Assembly: GCA_963709635.1 (NCBI GenBank)
Contig: CAVPXA010000026.1
Location: forward strand, 4,843-68,842
DNA: 64,000 bases
DNA from: an uncultured Thermoleophilia bacterium
GTDB lineage: Bacteria > Actinomycetota > Thermoleophilia > UBA2241
Direction: 5' to 3'
Positions 13,320 through 64,000 of this stretch are shown here, in pieces. The translations under genes and the position numbers were made by a program. Each line of letters begins with the position of its first letter. The first letter of the stretch is position 1. The notes beneath the pieces are model-generated. The model ran no database searches, was not told the origin of the DNA, and saw only the letters and a list, made by a program, of their open reading frames with translations.

Positions 13320-13371
13320 CTGGGCGTCGCGGCGTGCGTGGCTGGGCGGGATCTGATCCCGGTGCCGGCGG

Positions 13372-14055: not shown

Positions 14056-15874
<1,819 letters not shown>

Positions 15875-15875
<1 letters not shown>

Positions 15876-34184: not shown

Positions 34185-34345
34185 ATCTGACTGCTGTGGC
34201 GCGCATGCGCTCGCCCTGCCCGCTGCGCGGGCGCGCGCGAGGATGGCGTCTGGTAGGATTCCATTCCCGTATGCGACTGCGGGCTATGACGATCCCCTCG
34301 CCCTACGTCTTCGTCGGGCGAACATGCAGGAGAGGAGCGCTGCGC

Positions 34346-35516: not shown

Positions 35517-35535
35517 CCACGCGCACAAGGTACCC

Positions 35536-37071: not shown

Positions 37072-37087
37072 ACCCCGGGGAGCCGGC

Positions 37088-38149: not shown

Positions 38150-38156
38150 GGCTCTG

Positions 38157-39230: not shown

Positions 39231-40478
39231 AGATCTACTTCACGCTGTACCTGATACCGGTGGTGGTCTTCTCGCTGCTGGTGTTCTGGCTGCTGCTGCG
39301 CAAGGACACGCACCGGCTGATCTTCATGCTCGTCGTCAGCGTGGCCGTGCTGGCCGCGCTGCACCCTATCTTCGCGGCCATCGCCCTGGGCCTCGTGCTG
39401 GTCACTCACCAGCTGGTGGAGGCCCAGCGCAAGAAGAAGCTGCGCGGCGCGCGCGTCGTGCTCATCGCCATCATCATCGCGCTGGTCACGCTGGCCATCG
39501 GCAAGTACGGCCAGCGCGGCGCCCTGGCCCTGTGGTGGGCCGAGGGCGACTGGGTCGTCACCCACCTGCTCATGCCGCTCGGCATCAGCTACTTCGTGTT
39601 CCGCATGCTCCAGTACGTGTTCGACTGCATGCGCGGCGTGATCCAGGAGAACAGCCTGCTGCGCCTGGCCGCGTTCATGATGTGGATCCCCGACGTTCCC
39701 GGCCGGCCCGCTCGAGACCTACCAGGGCTTCTACGAGAAGCGCACCATCGGGTTCGACCGCCAGGAGTTCTACTACGGCCTGCGCCGCATCGCCCTCGGC
39801 TACTTCAAGAAGGTCTTCGTCGTCGACTTCCTGTTCGCGATCTTCTTCGGCAAGATCGTCAGCACCGTCGGCAAGACGGCCTTCGGCCCGGACGACGTGA
39901 GCTGGTGGTGGCCGCTCGCCTACTGCATCATCGTGTTCGTCCGCGCGTACTTCGACCTCTCCGCGTACACCGACCTCGCCATCGGCTTCTCGCGCCTGTT
40001 CGGGTTCCGCATCATGGAGAACTTCCACTTCCCGTTCTGGCAGAAGAACCTCAGCGACTTCTGGCACAGCTGGCACATCTCGCTGAGCACCTGGTGCCGC
40101 AACAACGTGTACTTCCCGGTGTTCGGCCTCACGCGCAAGCCGTGGCTCGGCCTGTACGCGAGCATGCTGGTCATGGGCCTGTGGCACGCGGTGGACCTCA
40201 ACTGGCTGGCCTGGGGCCTCTACCACGGCACCGGTCTGGTGATCCTGTCGCGCTGGGAGCGGTGGAAGAAGAAGCGCAGGAAGGCGCGCAAGAAGGCCGG
40301 CCTGCCGCCGGCGGCGAGCTACGAGAAGTACACCAGGTGGCTCGGCTACCCGGTGACGTTCCTCTACGTGGCGCTCGGCTACGGGTTCGTCGCCACGCCG
40401 AACTTCGAGCAGGCGCTCCGCGTGCTCTACAACGTCTTCCGCCTGCCGCTGGCGTGGCTGTTCGGCGTGCTGTTCTGA
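39227..40478 (+). CDS. MBOAT family O-acyltransferase (DltB/AlgI-like; frameshift ~39690)
   Basis: PLGISYFVFR, AGP, KKVFVVD, FDLSAYTDLAIG, ENFHFP, DFWHSWHISLSTW, catalytic GLWH. Confidence 0.93.
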
Positions 40479-44650: not shown

Positions 44651-46747
44651 TCAGTCGGCGACCTCGACCCGGTTCTTGCCGTGGCTCTTGGCCAGGTACA
44701 GTGCGCGGTCGGCGGTCCGGACCAGGTGCTCGGCGTCGCCGTCGTGGTCGGGCATGCTGGCGATGCCGACGCTGATCGTGACGTGGACGCGCTCGTGCGG
44801 CGCGCGGCCGGGGAACTCCTCTGCCTCCACCGAGAGGCGCACGCGCTCGCCGGCCGTCAGGGCGCCGCCGACCGTCGCGAGGTCCGGTTCGGCGGTGCGC
44901 ATCTGCTCGGTGAGCCGGCGCCCGACGCTCTCGGCGCCGCCGGGGTCGGTGTGCGGCAGGATCACGGCGAACTCCTCTCCGCCGTACCGCGCCGCGATGT
45001 CCACGCCGCCGCGCAGCTGGGTACGCATGATCTGCGCCACACGCCGCAGCACGCCATCACCGGCGGGATGGCCGTAGGTGTCGTTGTAGTGCTTGAAGTC
45101 GTCGAGGTCGAGCATGAGCAGCGACAGCGGGAGGCCGTACCGCCGTGCGCGGACGACCTCGTCGCGAAGCCGCTCGTAGAAGAAACGGTGGTTGTAGAGC
45201 CCGGTCAGCCCGTCGGTGATGGCCTGCCGCGCGAGCTCCGCGTACAGGCGGGTGTTGTCGAGCGCCGCGGCGGCCTGGTTGGCGAGGATCTGCACGAGCT
45301 CCACCTCGTCGGAGTCGAACGCGCGGTCGTCCGGGCTGGAGATGTCCATCCAGCCCTGGACCGCGGCCTTGGTGGCCAGCGGCAAGACGAGCCGGCGGCC
45401 GGGGGCCGCGGCCGCCTGCGCCGCCTGCTGCTCCGCCAGTGCTCGGTCGACGAGGGCGTCCGGCGGGGCGGTGGCGCCGTCGCGGGCACCGGCCGGGTCC
45501 AGACACAGGACCGCGACCTCCGTCGCGCGGTGTGGGAACAGCGTGCCGACTCGAGACTCGACAGCGCCCACGATCTCGCCGCCGTCGAGCGACGCGCTGA
45601 GCTGACGGCTGATCTCGAGGACCTTGACGAGACGCTCGTTGCGCCAGGTCTCCCGTCGGAACCACTTCGCGTTGCGGATGGCCGCCGCGGCCGGCTCGCC
45701 CAGAGCTCTGGCCAGCTCGATCTCGTCAGTATCGAATGAGCGCTCCGGACTCGACTCGGCGATCTCCATGAGCCCGACCGTCTCGTCGCCGAACCGCAGG
45801 GGGACCGTGAGCATGGACAGCTCGTCCCACTCCCGCATGCTCGCGAGTTGCGCGGGCGGCAGGCCCGGGTCCTTCACCGTGTAGAGCCGCATGCGGCCGC
45901 TCTGGAGGACCTCGCGGTCCCATGGGTAGTCGTCGAGTGCGTACACGGTACCGGGCGGATCGGGGTCGCGGTGTCCGGGGTCGGCGTGGAACTCGGAGCG
46001 CCAGAGGATCGAGTCGCCCTCCTGATCGTACTCGTAGATGTAGCAGGACGGGGCGCCGAGCGCCTGCGCCGCCTCCCCGGCGAGACGCTGCAGGACCTCC
46101 TCGAGGACCACTGTGGAGGAGAGGGCGCGGCTCGCGCTCAGCAGCGCGTTGAGGCGCCTGTTGGCGGCGAGCTGCTGCTGGGAGGTCCGCGCATTGCCGA
46201 TGGCCAGCGCCGCCACGTCCGCGAGCGCCGTGACCAGGCGGACGTCCTCAGCGTCGAACTCGTGCCGATCGCGACGCTCGATGAGCTCGAGGAGGCCGAG
46301 GGTCTCGCCGCCGAGTTCGAGCCGCGCGTACAGCGCCGTCTGCTCTCCCCAACGCCGCATGCGCTCCCAGTCCGGAGACCCGGGCTCCTCCTCGTCCACC
46401 TGCACGACGGCGACACCGCCCTGCCTGAAGACGCGCTGCACGCCGGGGTGGTGGTTGATGTCGGAGTCGGCGCCGACGAAGGCGATGTCCTCTTCGGAGA
46501 GGCTCCGCGACCACGTCGCCTGCGTGAGCAGGCAGTCGCGCGCGGGCACGTACTCGTACACGCTGCACTCCCACACACCGAGCGTCATGGTGAGCTGCTC
46601 GCAGACGTGGAGGAGGGTGCGGGAGAGCATCGCGCCGGCGACGCTGGTACTCGAGCCGTGCACACTGGTGCCGCCCTGGCCGGGCTGGTTCGCCTTCTGG
46701 GCTGGGCCGGACTTGCCGGCGACCCTGTCGCTTGCGCCGTCCATCAT
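44651..46747 (-). CDS. Multi-GAF diguanylate cyclase (GGEEF)
   Basis: Two full GAFs plus a short third; TDGLTGLYNHR, DLDDFKHYNDTYGHPAGD, RYGGEEF, ADRALYLAK. Confidence 0.93.
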   Translation of the reverse strand: MMDGASDRVAGKSGPAQKANQPGQGGTSVHGSSTSVAGAMLSRTLLHVCEQLTMTLGVWECSVYEYVPARDCLLTQATWSRSLSEEDIAFVGADSDINHHPGVQRVFRQGGVAVVQVDEEEPGSPDWERMRRWGEQTALYARLELGGETLGLLELIERRDRHEFDAEDVRLVTALADVAALAIGNARTSQQQLAANRRLNALLSASRALSSTVVLEEVLQRLAGEAAQALGAPSCYIYEYDQEGDSILWRSEFHADPGHRDPDPPGTVYALDDYPWDREVLQSGRMRLYTVKDPGLPPAQLASMREWDELSMLTVPLRFGDETVGLMEIAESSPERSFDTDEIELARALGEPAAAAIRNAKWFRRETWRNERLVKVLEISRQLSASLDGGEIVGAVESRVGTLFPHRATEVAVLCLDPAGARDGATAPPDALVDRALAEQQAAQAAAAPGRRLVLPLATKAAVQGWMDISSPDDRAFDSDEVELVQILANQAAAALDNTRLYAELARQAITDGLTGLYNHRFFYERLRDEVVRARRYGLPLSLLMLDLDDFKHYNDTYGHPAGDGVLRRVAQIMRTQLRGGVDIAARYGGEEFAVILPHTDPGGAESVGRRLTEQMRTAEPDLATVGGALTAGERVRLSVEAEEFPGRAPHERVHVTISVGIASMPDHDGDAEHLVRTADRALYLAKSHGKNRVEVAD

Positions 46748-48630: not shown

Positions 48631-50247
48631 TCAGCCGGCGCCGAAGACGACGACTGTGTCCTTGCCCTGCCGCTTGGCCTCGTAGAGCGCCTGGTCCGCC
48701 TTCGAGACCAGGTCGGCGGCGTCGTCCGCGTGCACCGGCAGCGTGGCGACGCCGATGCTCACGGTGACGCCGCGCCAGCCGGAGACGACCAGCGGCGCGC
48801 GCGCCTCCGAGATCGCTACGCGGATGCGCTCGGCGGTCGTCACGGCGCCGTCGAGGGCGCCGCCCGGGAGCTCGGACTCTGTGGCCGGCAGGATGACGGC
48901 GAACTCCTCGCCGCCGTAGCGCGCGGCGCAGTCCGTGCCCTGCCGGAGCTGCGTCTGCAGGGCCTGGCCCACCACGCGCAGCAGCTCGTCGCCCACCGGG
49001 TGCCCGAAGCGGTCGTTGACGTCCTTGAAGTCGTCGAGGTCCAGCATCAGCAGGGAGAGCGGCTGGCCGTAGCGCCCTGCCCGCGCGACCTCGTCGCGCA
49101 GGCGCTCCCAGAAGTAGCGGTGGTTGTAGAGCCCGGTGAGGCCGTCAATGATCGCCTGCCGCTCGATGGTCTCCTTCTGCTCCTGCAGACGGTGGTACAG
49201 CTGGGCGTGGTGGATGGCGACGCCGGCCTGCTCGCCGAGCGCCACGCAGAGCGCGGTCTCCTGCTCGGTGAAGTGGCGCGGGTACACCGCCTCGCTCACC
49301 TCGAGCGATCCGACCACCTCGCCGCCGACTACCAGAGGGACCATGAGCGACGACATCTCGCCCCACTCGAGCAGTTGCCGGCGCATGACCGGGTCCAGCG
49401 TCGGGTCGTCGAGGCGCACCTCGACCGGACGGCGCGTCCGCACGACGGCGAGGTCCTGCGGCAGGTCCTCTATCGGGTACACCGTGCCGAGAGGTTCCTC
49501 GAAGTCGTGCGAGGGGTCGCGCTGGTAGTGGGCCAGCCAGACCATGGCGTCGGCCTCCGGGTCGTACTCGTAGATGTAGCTCGACCCGGCGTCCAGGGCC
49601 AGCGCCGCCTGCCGGCAGATGACCTCGAGGAGCTCGTCCAGGTCGAGCGTCGAGGTCATCGCGCGCGAGGCGCCGATCATGGCCGAGAGCTGCCGGTTGC
49701 GCTCTTCGGACGCGCGCGAGGCGCGCGCGTTGGCGAGCGCGATGGCCGCCAGCGAGGCCATCTGGCTGACCAGACGCACGTCACCCTCGGTGAAAGTCCG
49801 CTCGCGCTCCTTCTCGGTGAGCTCCAGCATGCCGAGTACCCGGTCGCCGTGCACGATCGGCGCCCAGATCGCGGCCCGCTCGCCCCAGAACTCCATGGAC
49901 TCGAACCCCGCCGTGGCGGCGTCGATCTCGTCGTCGGGATACGAGCACAGCACCTGACGCTGCTCGATGACGCTTCTGAACCCGGGAGCGTCGGCGAGGC
50001 TGTGCGCCTCGCCGACCCAGTCGATGTCGTTCTCGTTGGGGACGCGCGACCAGAGGGCCTGGGCGCGCAGGAGGCCGCGTGAGGCGATGTACTCATAGAT
50101 GCAGCACTCCGAGCACTCGAGCGCCTCGGCGATCTTCTCGGCGAGCTCCACGAGGGTGTCGCCGAGCAGGGCGTCCTCACCCGCCCCCCCGTGGTGCACC
50201 AGAGCGAATGAAGTGCCTGCCCTCTCGTTGTCGTCCATGATCCGCAT
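48631..50247 (-). CDS. GAF-GAF diguanylate cyclase (GGEEF); start 50247 or 50238
   Basis: Two GAFs; DGLTGLYNHR, DLDDFKDVNDRFGHPVGD, RYGGEEF, ADQALYEAK. Confidence 0.93.
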   Translation of the reverse strand: MRIMDDNERAGTSFALVHHGGAGEDALLGDTLVELAEKIAEALECSECCIYEYIASRGLLRAQALWSRVPNENDIDWVGEAHSLADAPGFRSVIEQRQVLCSYPDDEIDAATAGFESMEFWGERAAIWAPIVHGDRVLGMLELTEKERERTFTEGDVRLVSQMASLAAIALANARASRASEERNRQLSAMIGASRAMTSTLDLDELLEVICRQAALALDAGSSYIYEYDPEADAMVWLAHYQRDPSHDFEEPLGTVYPIEDLPQDLAVVRTRRPVEVRLDDPTLDPVMRRQLLEWGEMSSLMVPLVVGGEVVGSLEVSEAVYPRHFTEQETALCVALGEQAGVAIHHAQLYHRLQEQKETIERQAIIDGLTGLYNHRYFWERLRDEVARAGRYGQPLSLLMLDLDDFKDVNDRFGHPVGDELLRVVGQALQTQLRQGTDCAARYGGEEFAVILPATESELPGGALDGAVTTAERIRVAISEARAPLVVSGWRGVTVSIGVATLPVHADDAADLVSKADQALYEAKRQGKDTVVVFGAG

Positions 50248-50335: not shown

Positions 50336-51544
50336 CTAGTATCTCACCATGAGCTTGCGCGTGGCAGCGGTGAGCCCGTCGACGGTGAGCTCGAACATGG
50401 GGAAGACCTCGCGGACCTTGCGGATGGTCACGCTGCCGTAGGCGCGGTCCCAGTCCGCCTCGGGGATGGTGTTGAGCCACACGGAATGGTCGAAGTGGCG
50501 GCGCAGGCGCCGGAGCCACTCGATGCCGGGCTCGTCGTTGCCGTAGCCCCACCAGATGATGCCGTCGCGGGCCATGAGCTCGCTGGGGGCCATGGCCGCG
50601 TCGCCGACGATGATGAGCTTGTAGTCGCTGGGCAGCTCCTGGAGCACGCGCCGCGTGGAGATCGCCTCCGACGACGTCATGCGCGTGCTCGTGTAGAGCC
50701 AGTCGTAGACGCAGTTGTGGAAGTAGTAGAAGCGCAGGTCCTTGAAGTGGCTGCTGCGGTTCACGGCGCTGAACAGCTGGCTGCAGAGGCGGATGTAGGG
50801 GTGCATGGAGCCGCCGACGTCCATGAGCAGCAGCACCTTGACGGAGTTCTTGCGGCTCTTGCGCCAGACGAGGCTGAGGCGGCCGGCGTTGCTCGCCGTC
50901 TCCTCGACGGTCTCGTCGAGATCCAGTTCATCCGGCAGGCCCTCGTTGCGCGAGCTCAGCTGGCGCAGGCGCCGCAGGGCGAGCTCGAACTGCCGCACGC
51001 CGACCTCCTGGTCGGTGCGGTAGCCGCGGTAGCGGCGCTCACCGGCCACCTTGACGGCGCTCCTGTTGCGGCTCTCGCCGCCCACGCGGATGCCGCCGGG
51101 GTGGTAGCCGGAGTGGCCGAACGGGCTGGTGCCGCCGGTGCCGACCCACTTGTTGCCGCCGTGGTGGGCCTCGGTCTGCTCCTTGAGGCGCTCCTCGAAC
51201 ATCCTCTGGAGCGCCTCGAGGTCGAGGTCCTCGAGCGCGGCGGCCAGCAGCCGCCGCTCCTCCTCGCTGAGCCCGGGCATGGTCAGCGGGTCCGCGAGCC
51301 AGTCCCAGACCTCGTCCTCGATCTCCACCGGCGTCTCGATGCCCTTGAACATGTGCGCGAACGCCTGGTCGTACTGGTCGAAGTACGCCTCGCTCTTGAC
51401 CAGGATGCTGCGCGCCACCGCGTAGAACTCGTCCAGGCTGCTCGGCACCAGGCCCATGGCGAGCCCGCGCATGAGCGCGAGCCACTCCGTGACCGTGACC
51501 GGCACGCCGTAGAAGCGCAGCAGGAAGAAGAAGTCGGTGAACAC
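50336..51544 (-). CDS. vWA-domain protein (CoxE-like partner of MoxR AAA+)
   Basis: HHGGNKWVGTGGTSPFG, MIDAS DVGGSM, YFHNCVYD, IVGDA. Confidence 0.88.
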   Translation of the reverse strand: MFTDFFFLLRFYGVPVTVTEWLALMRGLAMGLVPSSLDEFYAVARSILVKSEAYFDQYDQAFAHMFKGIETPVEIEDEVWDWLADPLTMPGLSEEERRLLAAALEDLDLEALQRMFEERLKEQTEAHHGGNKWVGTGGTSPFGHSGYHPGGIRVGGESRNRSAVKVAGERRYRGYRTDQEVGVRQFELALRRLRQLSSRNEGLPDELDLDETVEETASNAGRLSLVWRKSRKNSVKVLLLMDVGGSMHPYIRLCSQLFSAVNRSSHFKDLRFYYFHNCVYDWLYTSTRMTSSEAISTRRVLQELPSDYKLIIVGDAAMAPSELMARDGIIWWGYGNDEPGIEWLRRLRRHFDHSVWLNTIPEADWDRAYGSVTIRKVREVFPMFELTVDGLTAATRKLMVRY

Positions 51545-51555
51545 GCCGCCCTCCC

Positions 51556-51654
51556 TCAGCGCCTGCGCTGGCCGATCTCGCGCAGCACGAGCACGGCGAC
51601 CACGATGGCGATGACGATGACGAAGAAGAGCTCGATACCGCCGATGTTCGGCAT
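51556..51654 (-). CDS. 32-aa single-TM micro-protein with TatA-like N-terminus
   Basis: AGGAG RBS + ATG; MPNIGGIELFFVIVIAIVVAVLVLREIGQRRR. Confidence 0.6.
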   Translation of the reverse strand: MPNIGGIELFFVIVIAIVVAVLVLREIGQRRR

Positions 51655-51698
51655 GGGGACTCCTGGCCTCGAGGGGCCGCGGCCGGGCAGGCCTGCGG

Positions 51699-52535
51699 CT
51701 ATCTGCGGCCGCGGCCGGACGCCAGCGCGCGCTGCGCGACGTCCACGTCGTGGTCCTTCTTGAGCAGCACGCCCATGAACGGCAGGCGCGCGGCGATCTC
51801 CTTGGGGTCGACCCCGCCGCGCTCGAGCGCCTGCACCCAGTCGATGAGCTCGCTGGTGCTCGGCTTCTTCTGCAGGCCGGGGAGGTCGCGCAGCCAGTAG
51901 AAGGACTGCATGGCGAGGTCGAGCAGCCGCTTGTCCAGGCCGGGCACGTGGACGCGCACGATGCGCTCCATCATCTCCTCGTCCGGGAACTCGATGTAGT
52001 GGAACACGCAGCGGCGCAGGAACGCGTCCGGCAGTTCCTTCTCGGCGTTGGACGTGATGAGGACGATCGGCCGGTGCACGGCCTTGACGTTCTCGTGCGT
52101 CTCGGGGATGTGGAACTCCATCTGGTCGAGCTCCCACAGGAGGTCGTTGGGGAACTCGAGGTCGGCCTTGTCGATCTCGTCGATGAGCAGCACGACACGC
52201 TCCTCGCTGGCGAAGGCCTCGCCCAGCTTGCCGGGCTTGATGTACTGGGCGATGTCGCTGACGTCGCTGTCGCCGAACTGGCCGTCGTAGAGGCGCTGCA
52301 CCGTGTCGTAGACGTAGAGGCCGTCCTGCGCCTTGGTCGTCGACTTCACGTTCCAGATGAGCAGCGGCATCTCGAGGCCCTTGGCGATGCTCTGGGCGAG
52401 CATCGTCTTACCGGTGCCCGGCTCGCCCTTGATCAGCAGCGGGCGGCTGAGCTGCACCGCGACGTTGACGGTCTGCATGAGGTCGGGCGCGGCGATGTAG
52501 TCGCTGGTGCCCGTGTACGTGAAGGACTGGCTCAT
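51699..52535 (-). CDS. MoxR family AAA+ ATPase
   Basis: GEPGTGKT, YDTVQRL, LLIDEIDKAD, ITSNAEKELPDAFLRRC. Confidence 0.92.
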   Translation of the reverse strand: MSQSFTYTGTSDYIAAPDLMQTVNVAVQLSRPLLIKGEPGTGKTMLAQSIAKGLEMPLLIWNVKSTTKAQDGLYVYDTVQRLYDGQFGDSDVSDIAQYIKPGKLGEAFASEERVVLLIDEIDKADLEFPNDLLWELDQMEFHIPETHENVKAVHRPIVLITSNAEKELPDAFLRRCVFHYIEFPDEEMMERIVRVHVPGLDKRLLDLAMQSFYWLRDLPGLQKKPSTSELIDWVQALERGGVDPKEIAARLPFMGVLLKKDHDVDVAQRALASGRGRR

Positions 52536-52743
52536 GGCGTGCGCTTTCGGTCGTTGACGTGAGCGGGGGGCGCGCCGAGGCGGCACCCTCGGGAGTGTAT
52601 CAGACGCGCCGCCCGGCTCTGCGCACCGGCCCTCGTCTCCGCCGCCCGCCTCTGGCCGCCTCCGCGGCGGGCCAACGCCGTTCGGCACCCGCCACGCGGG
52701 TACAACCCAGACAAGCCGTCGATGTCAACCAGAGGGGGAGGAC

Positions 52744-53217
52744 ATGAGACCGCCGATCGCCGACCTTTCCGTGGAGAGCACGTTCGCGCACTGCGCGCTG
52801 CTCGAGCCGCTGAGCGAGGCCCAGATCGAGGCCCTGGCCGAGCACAGCCGGATGGTGGTCCTCAAGGAGGGCGAGCCGCTGTTCGATCAGGACACGGTCG
52901 CCCACAGCCTGTTCGTGGTGGCCAGTGGGCGGCTGGCGATCAGGCTCGCGACGCCGTCCGGCCGGACCATCGAGGTGGTGGAGGTCGGCCAGTACGGCAT
53001 CTCGGGCTGGTCCTCGATAGTGGCGCCGCACGTCTACGTGGCCGAGGCGAAGGCACTGGAGGACTGCACCGTTGTCGCCATCTCCGCCGACGAGGTGGAG
53101 GCCATCCTGCTCCGCGAACCCGTGGCCGGCTACCAGGTGATGAAGAAGCTGGCCGGCCTCATCTCTGTGCGCCTGCGGGACATGAAGGAGGAGCTCGTCG
53201 AGGTGCTCGAGGGCTGA
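52744..53217 (+). CDS. Stand-alone cyclic nucleotide-binding domain protein
   Basis: GEPLFDQD...LFVVASG...GWSSIV pattern; no HTH; GGAGG RBS. Confidence 0.85.
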   Translation: MRPPIADLSVESTFAHCALLEPLSEAQIEALAEHSRMVVLKEGEPLFDQDTVAHSLFVVASGRLAIRLATPSGRTIEVVEVGQYGISGWSSIVAPHVYVAEAKALEDCTVVAISADEVEAILLREPVAGYQVMKKLAGLISVRLRDMKEELVEVLEG

Positions 53218-53740
53218 CGCGGGTCCGGCGCCCGCCGACACACTCAGGTCGGGCGCCTCGCCGCATACCCAGGTCCGCCGTGGCCGCCGTCGGCGCGGTC
53301 GGAGCCGAACCTCCGGCGGCGTTCCGGCGGGCCCGGCGGCGTTTCAGCGGGCCCGCGCTCCGGCCGCCGCGGCTCTGGTCGCCCGCCTGGACCGCAGTCG
53401 GTGCAGGGGCACTCTGTTTGTGGTCGCGCCGGGGCAGCCGTTTGTGGTCGCGATGCCCCCTGTGGCGAAGCCGTTTGGCGGCCGGCGCCCGGCGCGACGG
53501 CTCAAGTCCGCAGATGTGGTCCACAGTGTGGACGGAGATGTGGCCTCACGAGAGACCCACCCAGCAGGGACTACCAACGGCTTCCCTCCGCCGCATCGGT
53601 CCGGGGGGTGAGGTGCCAGTCGGTCCGTGGCGTGAGGTTGCGAGCCGCGGGCGGTGTGGCGTGGAGGTAGACGGCGCCACGGAGGGAGGCGTGCGCGGCA
53701 TCGGGTGCCGGGCAGGCGCCCGTCGCGGCGTCAGAGTGCC

Positions 53741-53782
53741 TTGACAGGGCCGCGTCGCGCGCCTAGCATGCTCACATTGTGA
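53741..53782 (+). promoter_or_regulatory. Sigma70-type promoter of athL operon with adjacent palindrome
   Basis: TTGACA-17 bp-TAGCAT followed by TCACA-T-TGTGA (53772-53782). Confidence 0.7.
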
Positions 53783-53923
53783 CCTATATGTCCGCAATGC
53801 GAGCACCAGGGGCTTTCTCGCAGGTACGCCACCATTCTGTGCTGCACGCGCGCCTGTGCGCAACGCGACCGCTCGACCACCCAGACGTTCGGCCAACGCC
53901 TGTTACCTGAAGGAGAGGACCAC

Positions 53924-56524
53924 ATGGGAGAGGTAGTCCGACTGACGAACTCGTCGACCGGGGGGCCGGTCTTCGTCTACGTCGAGGACGGCAAGATCGT
54001 CCGCATCACGCCGATGGACCTCGACGACGCCGTGGACGCGGCCTCGTGGAAGATCGAGGCGCGCGGCAAGACCTTCCAGCCTCCGCGCAAGACGACGTAC
54101 TCGGTCTACACCGCCGGCTTCAAGTCCATGATCTACTCCGACCGCCGGATCAAGACGCCGATGAAGCGCGTCGACTTCGACCCCAACGGGGAGCGCAACC
54201 CCCAGAACCGCGGCATCTCCGGATACGAGCCCATCTCGTGGGACGAGGCCACCGACATCGTGGTCAGCGAGATCAACCGCGTGAAGCGCGAGGCCGGCCC
54301 CGCGGCGATCCTCTCCAGCCCCAGCTCCCACCACATGTGGGGCAACGTGGGCTATCGCCACAGCACCTACTTCCGCTTCATGAACATGATGGGCTTCACC
54401 TACGCCGACCATAACCCCGACAGCTGGGAAGGCTGGCACTGGGGCGGCATGCACATGTGGGGCTTCAGCTGGCGCCTCGGCAACCCCGAGCAGTACGACC
54501 TGCTCGAGGACACGCTGGAGAACACCGAGATGATCGTCTTCTGGTCGTCTGACCCGGAGACCAACACCGGCATCTACGCAGCGCACGAGTCCACGCCGCG
54601 CCGCTACTGGATGAAGGACCTGGGCATCAAGATGGTCTTCATCGACCCGTTCTACAACCACACCGCCGGGCTCATCGGCGACAAGTGGTTCTCTCCCAAG
54701 ATCGGCACCGACCACGCGCTCTCCTTCGCCATCGCCTACACCTGGCTGACCGAGGGCACCTACGACAAGGAGTACGTGGCCACGCACGCCCACGGCTTCG
54801 ACGAGTGGGCCGAGTACGTGCTCGGCAAGACCGACGGCGTGCCCAAGACCTGCGAGTGGGCCGAGGCCGAGTCCGGCGTCCCCGCCTGCGAGATCCGCGC
54901 GCTCGCCCGCGAGTGGGGCAAGCGCAAGACCATGCTCGCCGCCGGCGGCCTGGGCGGCTGGGGCGGCGCCTGCCGCGCCTCGCACGGCATCGAGTGGGCG
55001 CGCGGCATGATCGCGCTCGCGACCATGCAGGGCATGGGCAAGCCGGGCAGCAACATCTACTCGACCACGCAGGGCACGCCCGTCGACTACGACTTCTACT
55101 TCCCCGGCTACGCCGAGGGCGGCATCTCCGGCGACTGCGAGAACTCCGCCGCGGGCTTCAAGTTCGCCTGGCGGATGTTCGACGGCAAGACCACGTTCCC
55201 GTCGCCGTCGAACATCAACACCTCCGCCGGCCAGCACATCCCGCGCCTCAAGGTGCCGGAGTGCATCATGGACGGCGAGTTCCAGTGGGCCGGCAAGGGC
55301 TTCGCCGGCGGCGACATCCAGCACCAGATGCACCAGTACCAGTATCCGGCCCCCGGCTATCCCAGGATCAAGATGCTGTGGAAGTACGGCGGGCCGTGGA
55401 TCGGCACCATGACGGCGACCAACCGCTACGCCAAGATGTACGCGGACCCGAGCCTCGAGTGCGTCGTCAGCCAGTCCATCTGGTTCGAGGGCGAGGTGCA
55501 GTTCGCCGACATCATCCTGCCGGCCTGCACCAACTTCGAGCGCTGGGACATCAGCGAGTTCGCCAACTGCTCGGGCTACATCCCCGACACCTACGGCCAG
55601 TGCAACCACCGCGTGATCTCGCTGCAGGCCAAGTGCATCGAGCCCGTCGGCGAGTCCAAGTCGGACTACCAGATCTACGCGATGATCGCCGAGAAGCTCG
55701 GCATCGGCCCGATGTTCACCGAGGGCAAGGACGAGCTGGCCTGGGTGGAGCAGTACTACAACGCCACCGACATGCCCAAGCACATGACCTTCGCCGAGTT
55801 CAAGGAGAAGGGCTACTTCATCGTGCCGGACAACCCGGAGCGCAAGAAGACGCCGGCCCTGCGCTGGTTCGCCGAGGACCGCGAGAAGGACACACCCGAC
55901 TGGGGCCCGCGCCTGAACAACCAGGTCGGCCGCAAGGGCCTGCAGACGAGCACCGGCAAGGTCGAGTTCATCGCCACGAGCCTCAAGAACTTCGAGGAGC
56001 AGGGCTTCGAGGACGAGTACCGGCCCTCCATGCACACCTACGTGCCGGCGTGGGAGGGCCCGCGCTGCGAGCTCGCCAAGAAGTACCCGCTCGGCATGCT
56101 GTCCCCGCATCCGCGCTTCTCGTTCCACACCATGGGTGACGGCAAGGACAGCTTCATGAACGACATCAAGGACCACCGCGTCCTGGTGGACGGTCACTCC
56201 TACTGGATCATCCGCATCAACCGCGTCGACGCGGCCGCTCGCGGCATCGAGAGCGGCGACCTGGTCCGCGCCTTCAACGACCGCGGCTCGGTGATCGTCT
56301 GCGCGCAGGTCGGCGAACGCACACAGCCCGGCACCGTGCACACCTACGAGTCGTGCGCCGAGTACGACCCCCTGGGCAAGCCCGGCCGGTCCGCCGACCG
56401 CGGCGGGTGCATGAACATCCTCTCGCCGGATCGCTACATGTCCAAGTACGCGTCGGGCATGGCTCCCAACACTGCCCAGATCGAAGTAGAGAAATGGGAC
56501 GGCGGCATCTACGAGACCGACTGA
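53924..56524 (+). CDS. athL: Pyrogallol hydroxytransferase (transhydroxylase) large subunit, DMSO-reductase family Mo-bis-MGD enzyme
   Basis: MGEVVRLTNSSTGGPVFVYV, SSHHMWGNVGYRHSTYFRF, HNPDSWEGWHWGG, GGWGGACR, PGYAEGG, ANCSGY match my recollection of the Pelobacter acidigallici enzyme; no signal peptide. Confidence 0.9.
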   Translation: MGEVVRLTNSSTGGPVFVYVEDGKIVRITPMDLDDAVDAASWKIEARGKTFQPPRKTTYSVYTAGFKSMIYSDRRIKTPMKRVDFDPNGERNPQNRGISGYEPISWDEATDIVVSEINRVKREAGPAAILSSPSSHHMWGNVGYRHSTYFRFMNMMGFTYADHNPDSWEGWHWGGMHMWGFSWRLGNPEQYDLLEDTLENTEMIVFWSSDPETNTGIYAAHESTPRRYWMKDLGIKMVFIDPFYNHTAGLIGDKWFSPKIGTDHALSFAIAYTWLTEGTYDKEYVATHAHGFDEWAEYVLGKTDGVPKTCEWAEAESGVPACEIRALAREWGKRKTMLAAGGLGGWGGACRASHGIEWARGMIALATMQGMGKPGSNIYSTTQGTPVDYDFYFPGYAEGGISGDCENSAAGFKFAWRMFDGKTTFPSPSNINTSAGQHIPRLKVPECIMDGEFQWAGKGFAGGDIQHQMHQYQYPAPGYPRIKMLWKYGGPWIGTMTATNRYAKMYADPSLECVVSQSIWFEGEVQFADIILPACTNFERWDISEFANCSGYIPDTYGQCNHRVISLQAKCIEPVGESKSDYQIYAMIAEKLGIGPMFTEGKDELAWVEQYYNATDMPKHMTFAEFKEKGYFIVPDNPERKKTPALRWFAEDREKDTPDWGPRLNNQVGRKGLQTSTGKVEFIATSLKNFEEQGFEDEYRPSMHTYVPAWEGPRCELAKKYPLGMLSPHPRFSFHTMGDGKDSFMNDIKDHRVLVDGHSYWIIRINRVDAAARGIESGDLVRAFNDRGSVIVCAQVGERTQPGTVHTYESCAEYDPLGKPGRSADRGGCMNILSPDRYMSKYASGMAPNTAQIEVEKWDGGIYETD

Positions 56525-56572
56525 AGCCGGTTCGACCGACCGGCTGGGCATGACTGAGAAGGAGTCTGCGAC

Positions 56573-57397
56573 GTGAAGCAATGGTACAAAGTCATCGACG
56601 TGGCCAGGTGCCACGACTGCAACAACTGCTTTATGGCCGACAAGGACGAGTTCGTCGGCAACGACTGGCCGGGCTACACCTACGCGCAGCCCCGCCACGG
56701 CCACCGCTGGGTGGACATCCTGCGGCGTGAGCGCGGCCAGTACGCGCGCAACGACGTGGCCTACCTGCCGGTGCCGTGCCAGCAGTGCGAGAACCCGCCG
56801 TGCGTCCCGGCGTCGGAGGGTTCCTTCTACCAGCGCGAGGACGGCATCGTCCTGATCGACCTGGAGAAGGCCAAGGGCATCAGCAAGGATGTCATGGGTT
56901 CGTGCCCCTACGGCGCCATCTGGTGGAACGACGCTCTGGACATGCCGCAGAAGTGCATCTTCTGCGCCCACCTCATCGACGACGAGACGTGGACGCCGCA
57001 CACCACGCGCTGCACGCACTCCTGCCCGACGGAGGCCATGGAGACGCTCCTCGTCGAGCCCGAGGAGATGCAGGCGATCATCGCCGCCGAGGGACTGCAG
57101 GAGTACCTGCCCGAGCACGGCACCAAGCCGCATACGCTGTACAAGAACCTCCACCGGTTCACGAAGAACTTCATCACCGCCGGCGTGCTGGTGGACGGCG
57201 ACTGCTACGAGGGAGCCACGGTGACGCTGCAGGGCGCCGCCGCGGACCCGCAGACCACGAACTTCTTCGGGGAGTTCAAGTTCGACGGGCTCGACGACGG
57301 CGAGTACACGGTCGAGGTGGACGCCGGCGGCAAGAAGTACTCCGCCGCGGTCACCATCGCCGGCGAGTCCCGGAACATGGGCTTCATCGAACTGTAG
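56573..57397 (+). CDS. bthL: Pyrogallol hydroxytransferase small (Fe-S) subunit
   Basis: CHDCNNC, CQQCENPPC, CPY, CIFCAH...CTHSC; C-terminal beta domain TNFFGEFKFDGLDDGEYTVE. Confidence 0.88.
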   Translation: MKQWYKVIDVARCHDCNNCFMADKDEFVGNDWPGYTYAQPRHGHRWVDILRRERGQYARNDVAYLPVPCQQCENPPCVPASEGSFYQREDGIVLIDLEKAKGISKDVMGSCPYGAIWWNDALDMPQKCIFCAHLIDDETWTPHTTRCTHSCPTEAMETLLVEPEEMQAIIAAEGLQEYLPEHGTKPHTLYKNLHRFTKNFITAGVLVDGDCYEGATVTLQGAAADPQTTNFFGEFKFDGLDDGEYTVEVDAGGKKYSAAVTIAGESRNMGFIEL

Positions 57398-57432
57398 ACC
57401 GGCGGCCGGATCCCGGCACCTGTCATGAGGTT

Positions 57433-57468
57433 GGGGAGGGGAGGGCCTACGCGGGCTCTCCCCTTCTC
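57433..57468 (+). terminator. Hairpin after bthL
   Basis: GGGGAGGGGAGGGCC...GGCTCTCCCCTTCTC with G-U pairs. Confidence 0.45.
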
Positions 57469-57519
57469 GCTCCGAGAGTCACGGGCCGCCCGGCGGGCCA
57501 CGGAAAGGCGAGTGCGCGC

Positions 57520-58074
57520 ATGAAGCAGATCGTGGTGTTCAACGGCAGTCCGCGTATGGACGGCAACACCGTGACGGTGCTGGACCTGGTCGCCAAAGGC
57601 GCCCGCGACAGCGGGGCGGAGGTCAAGTACTACACGCTGTTCAAGATGAAGTTCATGGCCTGCCAGAGTTGCTTCGCCTGCCGCATGAAGGACGACTGCG
57701 TCATCAACGACGAGGTGCACGAGGCGCTGCAGAAGGTCAAGGCGGCCGACGCTGTGGTGATCGGCTCGCCGATCTTCATGATGCAGATGACCGGCCCCGT
57801 GAAGAACCTGTACGACCGGTTCTTCCCGCTGATGGACGTGGACGGCAAGCCGCGGTTCGGGACCAAGAAGCTGCTTACGGTGTGGTCGCAGAGCATGGAG
57901 GACGTGCACACCTACGACTCCTACTACGAGTACACCGCGGCGATGTACCCGTCGTTCGGCTTCGAGTGGGTGGACAACATCGTGTGCCCCAACGCGAACG
58001 ATCCGGAGAGCGCGGATCGCGACGCAGAGCTCAAGATCCGCGCCTACGAGGCGGGGGCCGCGCTCGCGCGCTGA
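57520..58074 (+). CDS. Flavodoxin-fold iron-sulfur flavoprotein
   Basis: NGSPRMDGNT, CQSCFAC...C, IGSPIF. Confidence 0.9.
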   Translation: MKQIVVFNGSPRMDGNTVTVLDLVAKGARDSGAEVKYYTLFKMKFMACQSCFACRMKDDCVINDEVHEALQKVKAADAVVIGSPIFMMQMTGPVKNLYDRFFPLMDVDGKPRFGTKKLLTVWSQSMEDVHTYDSYYEYTAAMYPSFGFEWVDNIVCPNANDPESADRDAELKIRAYEAGAALAR

Positions 58075-58091
58075 GGCGCCCGGCGCCCGGA

Positions 58092-58134
58092 AGAGCGGGG
58101 CGGCGGAGGCGCAGCGCCCCCGCCGCCCCGCTCT
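58092..58134. terminator. GC-rich hairpin between convergent genes
   Basis: AGAGCGGGGCGGCGG...CCGCCGCCCCGCTCT. Confidence 0.55.
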
Positions 58135-58307
58135 CCCCGCTGCATCAGAGTCCCCAGCCGAAGAGCGCGGCGTCGTAGCCGCCGCTCGCGTTGGGCTGCA
58201 TACCGCAGGCTGGTGGCCGCGCCCCTCCGGCGCGGCCGTGCCCAGTGATGGCACTAGTATCGCCAGAAGCAGGGGAGTCCAGCCCCGTTGGACGCGCTCG
58301 GGATGGT

Positions 58308-60648: not shown

Positions 60649-62547
60649 ATGATCGGACGTGAGCAGGAACTGGGCGCCGCGTGCGCCGTCCTGGGCGGCG
60701 GCATGCACCTGCTGCTGGAGGGCCCGGTGGGCTCCGGCAAGACGACGCTGGCCGCGGAGGCCTGCCGCCGGCTCGGCCGCGCGGCCATCCGCATCGACGG
60801 CGACGACCGCTTCTCCGAGAGCCGGCTGGCGGGCTGGTTCGACCCGCCGCTGGTGCTCCGGATGGGGTACGGGGAGGACGCGTTCGTCCCCGGCCCGCTG
60901 GTGCGCGCCATGCGCGAGGGGCGGGTCCTCTTCCTCAACGAGCTCAACCGGCTGCCTGAGGCAGCACAGAACCTGCTGCTGCCGGCCTTGGACGAGGGGC
61001 TCGTGGAGGTGCCGCACCTCGGGACGGTGAGCGCCGCGGAGGGCTTCCAGGTGGTCGCGACGCAGAACCCGGCTGAGTACGTCGCGACCGGTCATCTCTC
61101 GGAGGCGCTGCGCGACCGGTTCGAGCATCTGGTGGTGGGCTACCAGACGGCGGCGGAGGAAGAGGAGATCGTCGCCGCCGCGACGGGGTGCGCGGACGCC
61201 GCGCTGGTGCGCGCGGCCGTGCGCGTGACGCGCGGCACGCGGGTGCATCCGCGCGTGCGCCGCGGCGCGTCGGTGCGCGGCGCGATCGCCATGGTGGACC
61301 TGGCCGGCGCGCGGGACGACGGCTCCGGGCGCCGCAGCGCGTGGGACGATCGCGCGCCGCTCGCCGGCCGGCTGCGCGCGACGGCGGAGACCGCGCTGGC
61401 CACGCGCGTGGAGCTTCGCGACGGCGACGCCGTGCTCGGCGACGTGCTCGACGAGCTCGTCGACGTGGTCGTCGAGCGCGGGGAGGACCCGGAGGCGGCC
61501 GCCGCGGCGCTGTGGGGCGAGAGTGCGGACGGCCGGCGGACGCAGCAGGCGGGCGCGCGGGACGGCAGCGACCGGCGCGGTGCGGACGACCGCGACGCGG
61601 AGCGCCGGCCGGAGCCGGTGGTCTGTACGCTGGAGGACCGCCGCGCGCTGGCGGAGCAGCTGCGCGCGACGCCCGAGGACCTGGACGGCTGGCAGCTCGC
61701 CGGTGACCTGAGCGCGGGCGCGCTCAGCTACGCCGGCGAGCGCGCCTACCTGTGCGCGCAGCAACTGGCGGCGTCCGCCGTGCTGCAGCGCGCCGCCCGC
61801 CTCGTGGGTCCCGTCAAGGCCGCCACCAGGACCGTGCGCGAGCCGCTGCTGGAGCCTTGGGGCGGCGAGCTGGACGTGGAGGCCACGGTCGAGAACCTGC
61901 TCGGCAAGCCGCACCCGGAGCCCGGCGACCTCATCGTCCAGCGCCGGGTGGACCGGCGGCACCAGGTGGTCTTGATGCTCGACACCTCACTGAGCATGGC
62001 GGGGGAGAAGATGGCGCTCGGGGCGGTGGCCGCGGCGGTGCTCGCGCTCAAGCTGCGTACGGGCGACCTCGCCGTGGTGCTGTTCGCCGACGGCGCCCGG
62101 ACGGTGATGCGCTTCGGCGAGCAGGTCGAGCCGGCCGAGCTGGTCCGCCGCATGCTCGCCGTGCCGTGCGGCGGCGGCACGGACATCGCGGCCGCGCTCC
62201 GGCTCGGCCACGCCGAGCTCCAGCGCGGCCGCGACCCCGGCCGCTGCGGGCTCCTGGTGAGCGACGGCGTGTACACGAGCGGCGCGGACCCGCTGCCGGC
62301 GGCCGCGCGTTTCGGTGCGCTGCACGTACTTCTCATGGAGGAGCGGCCGGCGGTGCGCCCGGGGAGCGGCGGAGGCGCGGCCGCCGCCAGGTCGGGAGGG
62401 CCGGCGCCGGTCACGAGCTGGATCTCGCCCCGTCTGGCGGTGGGCGAGGCCGTCGCCCGCGCCGCCGACGGCGGCCTCGTCCGCGTGGACGGCTTCGCCG
62501 CCCTGCCGCGGCGCATGCTCGAGGTCGCGGACCGGGTGCTGCACTGA
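60649..62547 (+). CDS. MoxR-type AAA+ ATPase fused to C-terminal vWA domain
   Basis: GPVGSGKT, FLNELNR, ATQNP, LSEALRDRF; C-terminal ELDVEAT, DTSLSM (MIDAS), GGTDI, VSDG. Confidence 0.88.
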   Translation: MIGREQELGAACAVLGGGMHLLLEGPVGSGKTTLAAEACRRLGRAAIRIDGDDRFSESRLAGWFDPPLVLRMGYGEDAFVPGPLVRAMREGRVLFLNELNRLPEAAQNLLLPALDEGLVEVPHLGTVSAAEGFQVVATQNPAEYVATGHLSEALRDRFEHLVVGYQTAAEEEEIVAAATGCADAALVRAAVRVTRGTRVHPRVRRGASVRGAIAMVDLAGARDDGSGRRSAWDDRAPLAGRLRATAETALATRVELRDGDAVLGDVLDELVDVVVERGEDPEAAAAALWGESADGRRTQQAGARDGSDRRGADDRDAERRPEPVVCTLEDRRALAEQLRATPEDLDGWQLAGDLSAGALSYAGERAYLCAQQLAASAVLQRAARLVGPVKAATRTVREPLLEPWGGELDVEATVENLLGKPHPEPGDLIVQRRVDRRHQVVLMLDTSLSMAGEKMALGAVAAAVLALKLRTGDLAVVLFADGARTVMRFGEQVEPAELVRRMLAVPCGGGTDIAAALRLGHAELQRGRDPGRCGLLVSDGVYTSGADPLPAAARFGALHVLLMEERPAVRPGSGGGAAAARSGGPAPVTSWISPRLAVGEAVARAADGGLVRVDGFAALPRRMLEVADRVLH

Positions 62548-62722
62548 TGTCCCCTGCGAGGCGTTGGGGTGGAGCGGGCGTGCGGAGTGGGCGAGCGGAT
62601 CGAGTAGAGGGGTGAAGGTCGGTGCGCGGAGACTGGGTCCGTATCGCGTCAAGCGTATGCGGCACCAGTCAGCGCGAGGGCAATACCCCGCCCGGCGGGG
62701 ATGAGCGGACTTCGGAGGAGCG

Positions 62723-63259
62723 ATGACCGAGCGGGATGAGCTGATCGAGCGCGGGCTGGCGGCCGGCGCGGGCGCCGCGACGCTGCTGCGGCCGGAACAG
62801 GTGGTCACCGCGGAGTGGGTGCGCTGGAAGTGCCTGTACGGGTGTCCGGAGGCGGGTCGCTGCGTGACCTGCCCGCCGCACTCGCCGGCGCCGGAGCAGA
62901 CGCGGCGACTGCTCGAAGAGTACGAGACCATCCTGTTCCTGCGCTTCGACGTCCGGCCCGACGCCGCCGAGTGGACCCGGCCGGCGGCGTGGGTGCTTGA
63001 GCGCGTGCTGCGCCTGGAGCGCGAGCTGTTCCTGGGCGGCCGGCACAAGGCGTTCGCGATCGTCGGCGGCCGCTCGTGCGACCGTGAGAAGGTCTGCGGC
63101 TCGCCGGAGGCGTGCGCGAGCCGCGGCCGGCTGCGGCCAGGCCCGGCGGGCTGCGGCATCGACATCTTCTCCACGAGCGCTAGCGCCGGCTGGCCGCTGC
63201 AAGTGGTAGCGGCGGAGGGGGAGCCGTATCATCGCTACGCGCTCCTGCTCGTCGAGTGA
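62723..63259 (+). CDS. DUF2284 family Cys-rich metal-binding protein
   Basis: WVRWKCLYGC...CPPH, GIDIFST; GGAGG RBS. Confidence 0.8.
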   Translation: MTERDELIERGLAAGAGAATLLRPEQVVTAEWVRWKCLYGCPEAGRCVTCPPHSPAPEQTRRLLEEYETILFLRFDVRPDAAEWTRPAAWVLERVLRLERELFLGGRHKAFAIVGGRSCDREKVCGSPEACASRGRLRPGPAGCGIDIFSTSASAGWPLQVVAAEGEPYHRYALLLVE

Positions 63260-63346
63260 GGGGGGCGGCTCGGCGAGAGCGCGCCGGGGCGAGCGACCGT
63301 GATGCCAGTTGACGAACCGTGACACCAGCGGACGAAGGTTGAGGAC

Positions 63347-64000
63347 ATGACTCCGATCGAGCAGATCCAGCAGCAGCACGGCATCATCGGCCGCGAGGGC
63401 GAGCTGGCCACCGCGCTCGCCGTGCTGGGCGCCGGTCGCCATCTGCTGCTCGAAGGCCCGGTGGGCGTGGGCAAGACGACCGTGGCGCTGGCCGTGTGCG
63501 GGCACCTCGGGCGCGACACCGTGCGCGTGGACGGCGACGACCGGTACTCGGAGAGCAAGCTGACCGGCTGGTTCGACCCGCCGCTGGTGCTCAAGCAGGG
63601 CTACGGGGAAGAGGCGTTCTTCGCCGGGCCGCTGGTCGAGGCGATGCGGGACGGCAAGGTGCTGTTCATCAACGAGCTCAACCGGATGCCGGAGAGCGTG
63701 CAGAACGTCCTGCTCCCGGCGCTGGACGAGCGGCTGCTGCAGCTGCCGCACATCGGGGAGATCCGGGCCGCAGGCGGGTTCCAGGTGGTGGCGACGCAGA
63801 ATCCCGTGGAGTACGTCGCCACCGGCCACCTCTCCGAGGCGCTGCGTGACCGGTTCGAGCACCTCGCGCTGCTGTATCAGGGGGCGGAAGAGGAAGCGGC
63901 GATCGTGGTCGCCGAGACCGGCTCGGACGACGCCGCACTGGTGCAGACGGCCGTGCGGCTCACGCGGGCGACGCGGCTGCACCCGCGCTTTCGCAAAGGC
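63347..64000 (+). CDS. MoxR-type AAA+ ATPase, paralog of 60649 (3'-truncated by window edge)
   Basis: MTPIEQIQQQHGIIGREGEL, GPVGVGKTT, FINELNR, ATQNP, LSEALRDRF. Confidence 0.9.
   Translation, partial: MTPIEQIQQQHGIIGREGELATALAVLGAGRHLLLEGPVGVGKTTVALAVCGHLGRDTVRVDGDDRYSESKLTGWFDPPLVLKQGYGEEAFFAGPLVEAMRDGKVLFINELNRMPESVQNVLLPALDERLLQLPHIGEIRAAGGFQVVATQNPVEYVATGHLSEALRDRFEHLALLYQGAEEEAAIVVAETGSDDAALVQTAVRLTRATRLHPRFRKG

Follow-up and report, generated by a model that had tools for sequence, protein, structure and literature searches.

We analysed a 64-kb stretch of DNA (64,000 nt of contig CAVPXA010000026.1, hereafter the window) from an uncultured bacterium of the class Thermoleophilia and found three adjacent genes, athL, bthL and a gene for an iron-sulfur-flavoprotein-like (ISF-like) protein, which are predicted to encode pyrogallol-phloroglucinol transhydroxylase and a conserved companion. 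With a probability of about 0.82, the best overall explanation is a horizontally acquired three-gene transhydroxylase operon in the chromosome of this uncultured host. The enzyme, as known from Pelobacter acidigallici, moves a hydroxyl group between phenols: pyrogallol, which derives from gallate and tannins, is converted to phloroglucinol, with 1,2,3,5-tetrahydroxybenzene as the regenerated co-substrate. It acts as a gate that admits tannin-derived trihydroxybenzenes to anaerobic fermentation.

Identity of AthL

AthL matches PDB chain 4v4c_A, the large subunit of pyrogallol hydroxytransferase, with 1712 bits, residues 1–864 aligning to chain residues 1–873; the next PDB family, dimethyl sulfoxide (DMSO) reductase, scores 271 bits. 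The protein is 83% identical to P0016, an 875-amino acid (aa) database protein that itself matches 4v4c_A end to end with 2050 bits; the value of ∼83% for the P. acidigallici enzyme is an identity by this proxy and not against the PDB chain itself. Pfam PF21423 (AhtL-like first domain) was found in AthL at 1.5e-29, above the cut-off, and an NCBIfam scan of AthL gave no equivalog above cut-off for another molybdoenzyme of the DMSO reductase family. The N-terminus, MGEVVRLTNSS, is identical to that of the crystallised chain and carries neither a twin-arginine (Tat) signal nor an N-terminal Cys/Fe-S motif. Taken together, sequence, active-site residues, tree position and gene order point to AthL/BthL being the cytoplasmic Mo enzyme pyrogallol-phloroglucinol transhydroxylase.

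A preliminary description of this DNA, made from its letters, had listed an 866-aa Mo enzyme, a 274-aa Fe-S subunit and a flavoprotein with host-like G+C content at third codon positions (GC3) and no frameshifts, and had judged long stretches to be nearly identical to P. acidigallici AthL. The end-to-end match above agrees with the latter, and all three genes proved intact, with zero internal stops. Their G+C contents at codon positions 1/2/3 are 0.55/0.46/0.97 (athL), 0.60/0.41/0.96 (bthL) and 0.56/0.38/0.95 (third gene); a GC3 of 0.95–0.97 is host-like, the other 48 called genes in the window having values of 0.89–0.99.

Phylogeny of AthL

Relatives were collected by scanning a single genome for each prokaryotic species, which gave 205 stretches; the best 80 of the 205 were kept as 76 loci (L-numbers). 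From 100 members of the open reading frame (ORF) cluster we used the 91 of at least 780 aa as the family set, the shorter, truncated ones being left out. Identity to the window AthL is highest for the closest metagenome-assembled genomes (MAGs) labelled Thermoleophilia (95–98%) and amounts to 83–93% for other Actinomycetota, 87% for Holophaga foetida DSM 6591, 84–87% for Acidobacteriaceae MAGs, 83% for Parasporobacterium paucivorans, 82–83% for two Geopsychrobacteraceae and 78% for Eubacterium oxidoreducens DSM 3217. Across phyla the identity is 76–87%.

In a quick maximum-likelihood tree of 91 rows the window sequence falls into a 60-row core clade with a support of 100, which also holds E. 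oxidoreducens DSM 3217, H. foetida DSM 6591, P. paucivorans and the two Geopsychrobacteraceae. Three groups of paralogues, with identities of 62–67%, 49–57% and 36–38%, lie outside it. A phylogeny had been named by the preliminary description as the check on its assignment; in our tree AthL belongs with producers that are characterised or validated by their physiology, at a support of 100, and the paralogues lie outside. We also computed a careful tree of 48 rows, consisting of 44 core rows thinned at 95.5% identity and four 65% paralogues as outgroup; the root was placed by these paralogues, and the rooting is an inference. Here the actinobacterial orthologues form one clade (99/100), nested in the core clade and sister to Holophagaceae (97/98), and the Oscillospiraceae are the deepest core branches. 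The quick tree gives a different acidobacterial group as sister of the actinobacterial clade (95).

Because the actinobacterial clade is nested inside other phyla, at a cross-phylum identity of 76–87%, we favour horizontal acquisition; the data fit an old event in an ancestor of the actinobacterial clade. The operon would have entered this ancestor by horizontal transfer and would then have been inherited, fully ameliorated to host codon usage and rearranged, coming to lie beside phloroglucinol-degradation genes in many relatives and alone in the subclade of the window. A cross-phylum transfer with amelioration, suggested at the outset as plausible, agrees with codon composition and tree alike. 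Since its substrate comes from plants, the transhydroxylase is argued in PMC10100899 to be a recent diversification.

Active-site residues

After residue 98, the number in chain 4v4c_A equals the window AthL number plus 8; we use 4v4c_A numbering here. All ten residues that we checked are present in AthL: His144, Tyr152, Arg153, Asp174, Ser175, Trp176, Trp354, Tyr404, Cys557 and Tyr560. They are invariant in 60/60 core-clade rows, with the exception of Arg153 (58/60). The motifs SSHH, PDSW, GGWGG, PGYAE, GFAGG and NCSGY, picked out in the preliminary description, all occur in the translation, and the named motifs align to His144, Asp174/Ser175/Trp176, Trp354, Tyr404 and Cys557/Tyr560. The roles of the active-site and pocket residues are reportedly described in the structure paper of Messerschmidt et al. 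2004. Ser175, which we take to be the Mo ligand of the P. acidigallici enzyme, has an invariant equivalent in 91/91 family rows. According to PMC10100899, the Mo cofactor of PgtL is ligated by serine. Judged by its sequence, AthL is a true orthologue of the characterised transhydroxylase and not a distant paralogue.

Operon layout

The coordinates of all features are collected in Table 1. The spacers measure 48 nt between athL and bthL and 122 nt between bthL and the third gene. Shine-Dalgarno-like sites precede all three starts, among them the ribosome-binding site AAGGAGAGG 6 nt 5′ of the athL start and an AAGGAG site 5′ of the GTG start of bthL. The hairpin 3′ of the third gene has a folding energy of −53.5 kcal/mol (z = −4.73; 0/200 shuffles equally stable). 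Ribosome-binding sites, short spacers and the 3′ hairpin indicate that athL, bthL and the ISF-like gene form a three-gene operon with one predicted transcription unit. The fold of the spacer between bthL and the third gene is not better than that of shuffles (z = −1.14). Upstream of athL, one sigma-70-like site was found against 0.4 expected from shuffles; the spacer of ∼700 nt in this place (53218–53923) gave no riboswitch or other RNA (Rfam, E ≤ 1) and no coding signal, and it is not conserved across the syntenic loci.

Table 1. Predicted features of the transhydroxylase operon and its surroundings in the 64-kb window
Feature	Position	Strand	Description
athL	53924–56524	+	866 aa, ATG start; predicted large subunit with Mo-bis(molybdopterin guanine dinucleotide) (Mo-bisMGD) of pyrogallol-phloroglucinol transhydroxylase
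bthL	56573–57397	+	274 aa, GTG start; predicted small Fe-S subunit, ferredoxin-like domain and C-terminal beta-barrel-like domain
Third gene, iron-sulfur-flavoprotein-like FMN_red protein	57520–58074	+	184 aa, ATG start
Ser167 codon of athL	54422–54424	+	equivalent of Ser175, the presumed Mo ligand of the P. acidigallici enzyme, within NPDSW; by alignment to 4v4c_A
Asp23 codon of bthL	56639–56641	+	replaces the fourth Cys of the first CX2CX2CX3C motif
CX2CX2CX5C motif of the third gene (Cys48, 51, 54, 60)	57661–57699	+	invariant in 27/27 aligned homologues
Sigma-70-like promoter match TTGACA-17-TAGCAT	53741–53769	+	∼155 nt 5′ of athL; consensus match only
G+C-rich hairpin, terminator-like, no T run	58078–58150	+	directly 3′ of the stop of the third gene
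Stand-alone cyclic-nucleotide-binding protein	52744–53217	+	157 aa; Pfam PF00027 at 5e-15

A conserved ISF-like third gene

The flavoprotein of the preliminary description is real and can now be specified as a conserved ISF-like third gene. We place its start at 57520 because a 432-aa ORF from 56776 runs out of frame over bthL; this longer ORF was rejected as the flavoprotein. The protein belongs to Pfam PF03358 (FMN_red, flavodoxin-like; 6e-21), and a CX2CX2CX4–7C motif is present in 50 of 54 homologues. A compact CX2CX2CX5–7C motif defines iron-sulfur flavoproteins (ISF; PMC3164229). Since no solved ISF chain was matched by sequence or profile at E ≤ 0.01, we call the protein ISF-like only. 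Its nearest solved relative is PDB 7d38 (E of 1e-8 by sequence and 5e-10 by profile, over residues 8–116), identified as the flavone reductase FLR, a polyphenol ene-reductase, in PMC7862272. A search of the Atlas with the Holophaga homologue yielded only ‘flavodoxin family protein’ clusters.

The position of the gene is conserved far beyond the window. Downstream of the 58 core athL genes with at least 2 kb of 3′ space we found bthL in 55 cases and an FMN_red gene directly after it in 52, starting 858–1167 nt past the athL stop; for non-core paralogues with the same 3′ space the numbers are 14/29 for bthL and 1/29 for the FMN_red gene. By phylum, the third gene follows bthL in 21/25 Bacillota, 17/19 Actinomycetota, 7/7 Acidobacteriota, 3/3 Thermodesulfobacteriota and 3/3 unnamed loci. 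In four of the six exceptions an additional AthL-BthL pair has been inserted, and in two of these four the FMN_red gene is found further downstream. A second AthL-BthL pair, of 65–66% identity, separates the core pair from its downstream genes in the Lachnospiraceae loci L054–L057; L056 and L057 carry the ISF-like gene further downstream. The window also encodes a second FMN_red protein (34271–35029, 252 aa, C-x2-C-x2-C), which is 24% identical over 110 aa to the ISF-like protein of the operon and has a tRNA just upstream (34097–34181).

The Fe-S clusters of BthL have no known role in the net redox-neutral reaction. As a tentative proposal, which we consider possible and well short of probable, the ISF-like protein might be a dedicated, previously undescribed partner of the transhydroxylase that exchanges electrons with the three Fe-S clusters of BthL. 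We infer such an exchange because the gene order is conserved across presumably independent transfers. It might reset the Mo centre after off-cycle oxidation or reduction, or the ISF-like protein might accept the two electrons that the enzyme sets free in first forming 1,2,3,5-tetrahydroxybenzene from pyrogallol. If true, such a partner would explain both the presence of an electron-transfer subunit in a non-redox enzyme and the source of the co-substrate. A literature search found no paper linking the transhydroxylase with an iron-sulfur flavoprotein, and a table in PMC8624197 gives only athL and bthL for the enzyme.

BthL and its Asp variant

BthL matches 4v4c_B with 357 bits over residues 2–274. 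A transhydroxylase small subunit is expected to hold twelve Cys ligands for three [4Fe-4S] clusters and a C-terminal beta-barrel domain. For the barrel the sole domain evidence is that residues 209–266 weakly match PF13620 and PF17210, in both cases under the gathering cut-off. Of the twelve conserved Cys, the window protein has eleven, with Asp23 at the twelfth position. At this position we found Asp in the window and in 14/14 scorable actinobacterial BthL sequences (two more were unscorable), and Cys in 39/39 sequences from other phyla. In the sequences compared, Asp at position 23 is thus an actinobacterial signature. If the ISF-like protein is indeed a redox partner, the exchange of Cys for Asp would retune the proposed electron wire between it and BthL.

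Candidate phloroglucinol-pathway genes in related loci

The characterised phloroglucinol pathway of Clostridium scatologenes (PMC10470551) draws on four families, BKACE, SDR, 3HCDH and Cyclase. Genes of three or four of these families immediately precede a core athL in actinobacterial loci such as L007, L012 and L075, and the same block occurs in L010–L013, L035 and L059. Counting all AthL-family genes, the block stands beside one to three of them in L007, L010–L013, L031, L034, L035, L046, L059 and L075. L002, whose AthL is 97% identical to that of the window, has an SDR gene beside the orthologue, and L019 has SDR-SDR-3HCDH. By gene-cluster composition only, the SDR is a candidate phloroglucinol reductase (PGR); a PDB search with an SDR representative of the neighbouring clusters gave generic SDRs and no named phloroglucinol reductase among the best 60. 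Outside the constant BthL and FMN_red partners, the gene content around the core orthologue differs between lineages: UbiD/UbiX genes lie near the orthologue in several of them, and neighbourhoods in Lachnospiraceae contain an SSF transporter, LysR and GntR regulators and molybdenum cofactor (Moco) genes. The clusters of L007, L010–L013, L019, L034, L059 and L075 hold up to three AthL-family genes (core, 62–67% and 36–38%) together with IclR regulators and the phloroglucinol pathway, often near trpA and a BldD-like regulator. In the bacterium studied here the operon may serve the anaerobic use of trihydroxybenzenes, or the interconversion of pyrogallol and phloroglucinol from flavonoids and tannins.

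Host and genomic setting

The window has a G+C content of ∼71% and carries ordinary chromosomal genes such as leuS, comEA/comEC, holA, rpsT, lepA, hrcA, dnaJ, phoH, ybeY and era. Its part from 43 to 64 kb is collinear with L001, L003, L004, L005, L008, L029 and L030 at 77–94% nucleotide identity. These seven syntenic contigs extend up to 534 kb; six are labelled Thermoleophilia and one Actinomycetes. By these labels the host belongs to the Thermoleophilia (Actinomycetota), and the actinobacterial origin assumed in the preliminary description holds. Because the same flanking gene order is found in all seven contigs, we regard the operon as a stable feature of the clade and not as a one-genome island or a binning artefact.

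Previous reports and significance

Genes of Actinomycetota labelled as transhydroxylase have been reported from peat (PMC12203004, ISME J 2025): PGR or pgthAB genes were expressed by 57 MAGs from 13 phyla, among them undescribed actinobacterial genera including RBG-16-64-13. Supplementary Data 6 of that study lists a Thermoleophilia MAG (order RBG-16-64-13, genus CAIQPS01) with 23 distinct expressed pgthA-labelled genes in one sample; a PGR-labelled gene of the same MAG lies on the same contig as one pgthA-labelled gene and was expressed in peat microcosms. Among our loci, L032, from an assembly with the genus name CAIQPS01, encodes a 91% identical AthL fragment. The pgthA labels of that study are automatic and clearly mix the orthologue with paralogues. 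At least 19 actinobacterial species-representative loci carry the orthologue; with these loci and the expressed pgthA- and PGR-labelled genes of the Thermoleophilia MAG (PMC12203004), the initial view that the trait was new for the lineage was overstated. Our literature search found no paper joining Thermoleophilia with pyrogallol enzymology, the nearest matches being phenol-oxidase assays or gut surveys, none linking Holophaga foetida with phloroglucinol, and none linking CAMPER with polyphenol and Thermoleophilia. The present analysis adds the clade of true orthologues, its single nested actinobacterial origin, the conserved ISF-like third gene and the Asp variant of BthL.

As a gate to fermentation, the transhydroxylase is relevant to how peat and wet soils store carbon. 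The true orthologue, and not just look-alike paralogues, is now seen in an abundant uncultured soil class, which sharpens the automatic annotation of pgthA. The operon offers a concrete target for enrichment and expression work, and the ISF-like gene a testable handle on the role of the Fe-S subunit and on the source of the co-substrate.

Alternative explanations

Several observations weigh against our interpretation of the three genes. The first concerns the active site: the 62–67% paralogues keep all ten checked residues in 12 of 16 rows, the other four having Asn at Cys557. Substrate specificity is not provable from the residues alone because these paralogues largely share them; the assignment rests on the 83% identity and on clade membership. 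AthL could then be a family member with a different substrate pair, for example one performing a different hydroxyl transfer or a resorcinol hydroxylase-like hydroxylation, and ‘transhydroxylase’ would be an over-annotation. We consider this unlikely: the family is indeed much expanded in Actinomycetota, with paralogues of all three identity classes in the same loci, and over-annotation is probable for many of the 23 pgthA-labelled genes in the one MAG, but the window AthL is not among these paralogues. Its identity to P0016, a protein that is almost a copy of the crystallised enzyme, is 83%, and it lies inside the clade with biochemically studied producers, and the core gene order is kept, with the ISF-like gene following in 52/58 core against 1/29 non-core loci. 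A second point is the Asp in BthL, which stands in place of a cluster-ligand Cys.

The third point is the gene content around the operon. A tblastn search with 11 representatives against the 64-kb window gave no hit to the phloroglucinol pathway or to gallate decarboxylase at E ≤ 1e-3, and neither PGR, cyclohydrolase, dehydrogenase, lyase or UbiD decarboxylase genes nor Moco genes were found within the window. Nor does any gene of these kinds occur in the 10 kb on either side of the operon in the seven syntenic contigs. We therefore treat a complete catabolic route in this genome as a possibility only, and likewise the anaerobic degradation of plant polyphenol monomers put forward in the preliminary description. 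The search for pathway and Moco genes proposed there came out negative for both in the 64-kb window; for pathway genes it was positive in related actinobacterial loci, where the pathway block adjoins the orthologue. With the operon apart from pathway genes in all these contigs, it might encode a true transhydroxylase without phloroglucinol catabolism, which would interconvert pyrogallol and phloroglucinol or shuffle hydroxyls among other polyphenols, in detoxification or cross-feeding and not in growth on gallate. In PMC12203004 the pgthAB step between phloroglucinol and pyrogallol is regarded as reversible, and a peak of pyrogallol in microcosms is reported. We give this alternative a minor but appreciable chance of about one in five. 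Against it, the close relatives L002 and L019 have the orthologue beside SDR or SDR-SDR-3HCDH, the full four-gene set adjoins it in many other actinobacterial loci, and in the Thermoleophilia MAG of PMC12203004 one pgthA-labelled gene is only three genes away from a gene labelled PGR.

Two further points concern history and data quality: the donor of the transfer differs between the quick and the careful tree, and apparent frameshifts in lepA and murJ show that the sequence quality of the window is imperfect. The lepA gene (13143–15875) is spread over three reading frames (∼14000–14800, 14840–15130 and 15195–15875), and murJ (11569–13143) is split into three ORFs; these breaks reflect either an indel-prone assembly or pseudogenes, and the transhydroxylase operon is intact by contrast. 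The contig might also not be actinobacterial, or the operon might have been inserted very recently or have arisen as an artefact of assembly or binning, and the region from 54 to 58 kb does have the lowest G+C content of the window (0.653–0.660 versus 0.672–0.761 elsewhere). With GC3 at host level, we trace this dip to the first and second codon positions of constrained proteins. Seven independent contigs with the operon between the same flanking genes, a GC3 as in host genes and the core genes leuS, holA, rpsT, lepA, hrcA, dnaJ and era on the window make an artefact or recent insertion highly improbable. A horizontally acquired transhydroxylase operon of a Thermoleophilia chromosome remains our preferred explanation.

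Neighbouring genes

The stand-alone cyclic-nucleotide-binding protein upstream of athL has the same length and position in the seven syntenic loci and is a conserved upstream neighbour in the subclade of the window. No helix-turn-helix domain was found to follow it in any frame; the protein is possibly a regulator. Two GAF-GGDEF diguanylate cyclases, both on the minus strand (44651–46747 and 48631–50247), lie near this gene and make for a signalling-rich upstream neighbourhood. The operon is flanked by MoxR/MadB-like AAA ATPases and CoxE-type VWA proteins (50336–52586 on the minus strand and 60649–64000 on the plus strand; weak family matches), and a DUF2284 metal-binding protein is encoded at 62723–63259. 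These AAA, VWA and DUF2284 flanks are conserved in the seven syntenic contigs and not in other lineages. The AAA/VWA, DUF2284, TIM-barrel and 362-aa flanking genes matched known families only weakly and below threshold, and they showed no connection with the transhydroxylase. Further away, a dlt-like set (35060–40478) comprises a PP-binding carrier (35060–35308), an AMP-binding ligase (35536–37071), a 353-aa protein and an MBOAT fragment (39897–40478); such D-alanylation-type genes are unexpected in a Thermoleophilia genome.

Comparison with known systems

The pgthAB genes of the peat study (PMC12203004) agree with the window operon in lineage level and predicted function; in the portions of that study considered here, neither the true orthologue nor the third gene nor the Asp variant receives separate mention. 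RhLS resorcinol hydroxylase and the catechol dehydroxylases of gut actinobacteria belong to the same superfamily, in its serine-ligated branch, and act on phenols as well (PMC10100899). They catalyse net redox reactions, whereas the window AthL belongs to the transhydroxylase core clade in the tree of the 91 family rows, and not to these enzymes. The third gene shares with ISF, whose prototype is that of Methanosarcina thermophila, the FMN_red fold and the compact CX2CX2CX5C motif (residues 48–60). FLR (7d38) is longer, with 310 aa versus 184 aa, and its similarity to the third gene spans only residues 8–116.

Among the transhydroxylase loci, that of E. oxidoreducens DSM 3217 (L026) encodes a core orthologue of 78% identity, after which come the genes for BthL and the ISF-like protein, as in the window. 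The operons of Lachnospiraceae are flanked by an SSF transporter, LysR/GntR regulators and Moco genes, none of which lies near the window operon. The closest comparison is with AthL/BthL of P. acidigallici itself (PDB 4v4c, 4v4d and 4v4e; EC 1.97.1.2). The window differs from it in a host of another phylum with ∼71% G+C, in an 8-residue deletion after AthL residue 98, in a lower identity of BthL with Asp23 for Cys, and in a genomic setting without pathway genes. The two systems share the two-subunit architecture, the length and the N-terminus, an AthL identity of ∼83% by the proxy P0016 and the ten checked active-site residues, and the Geopsychrobacteraceae loci L036 and L037 have the same downstream gene order as the operon described here.

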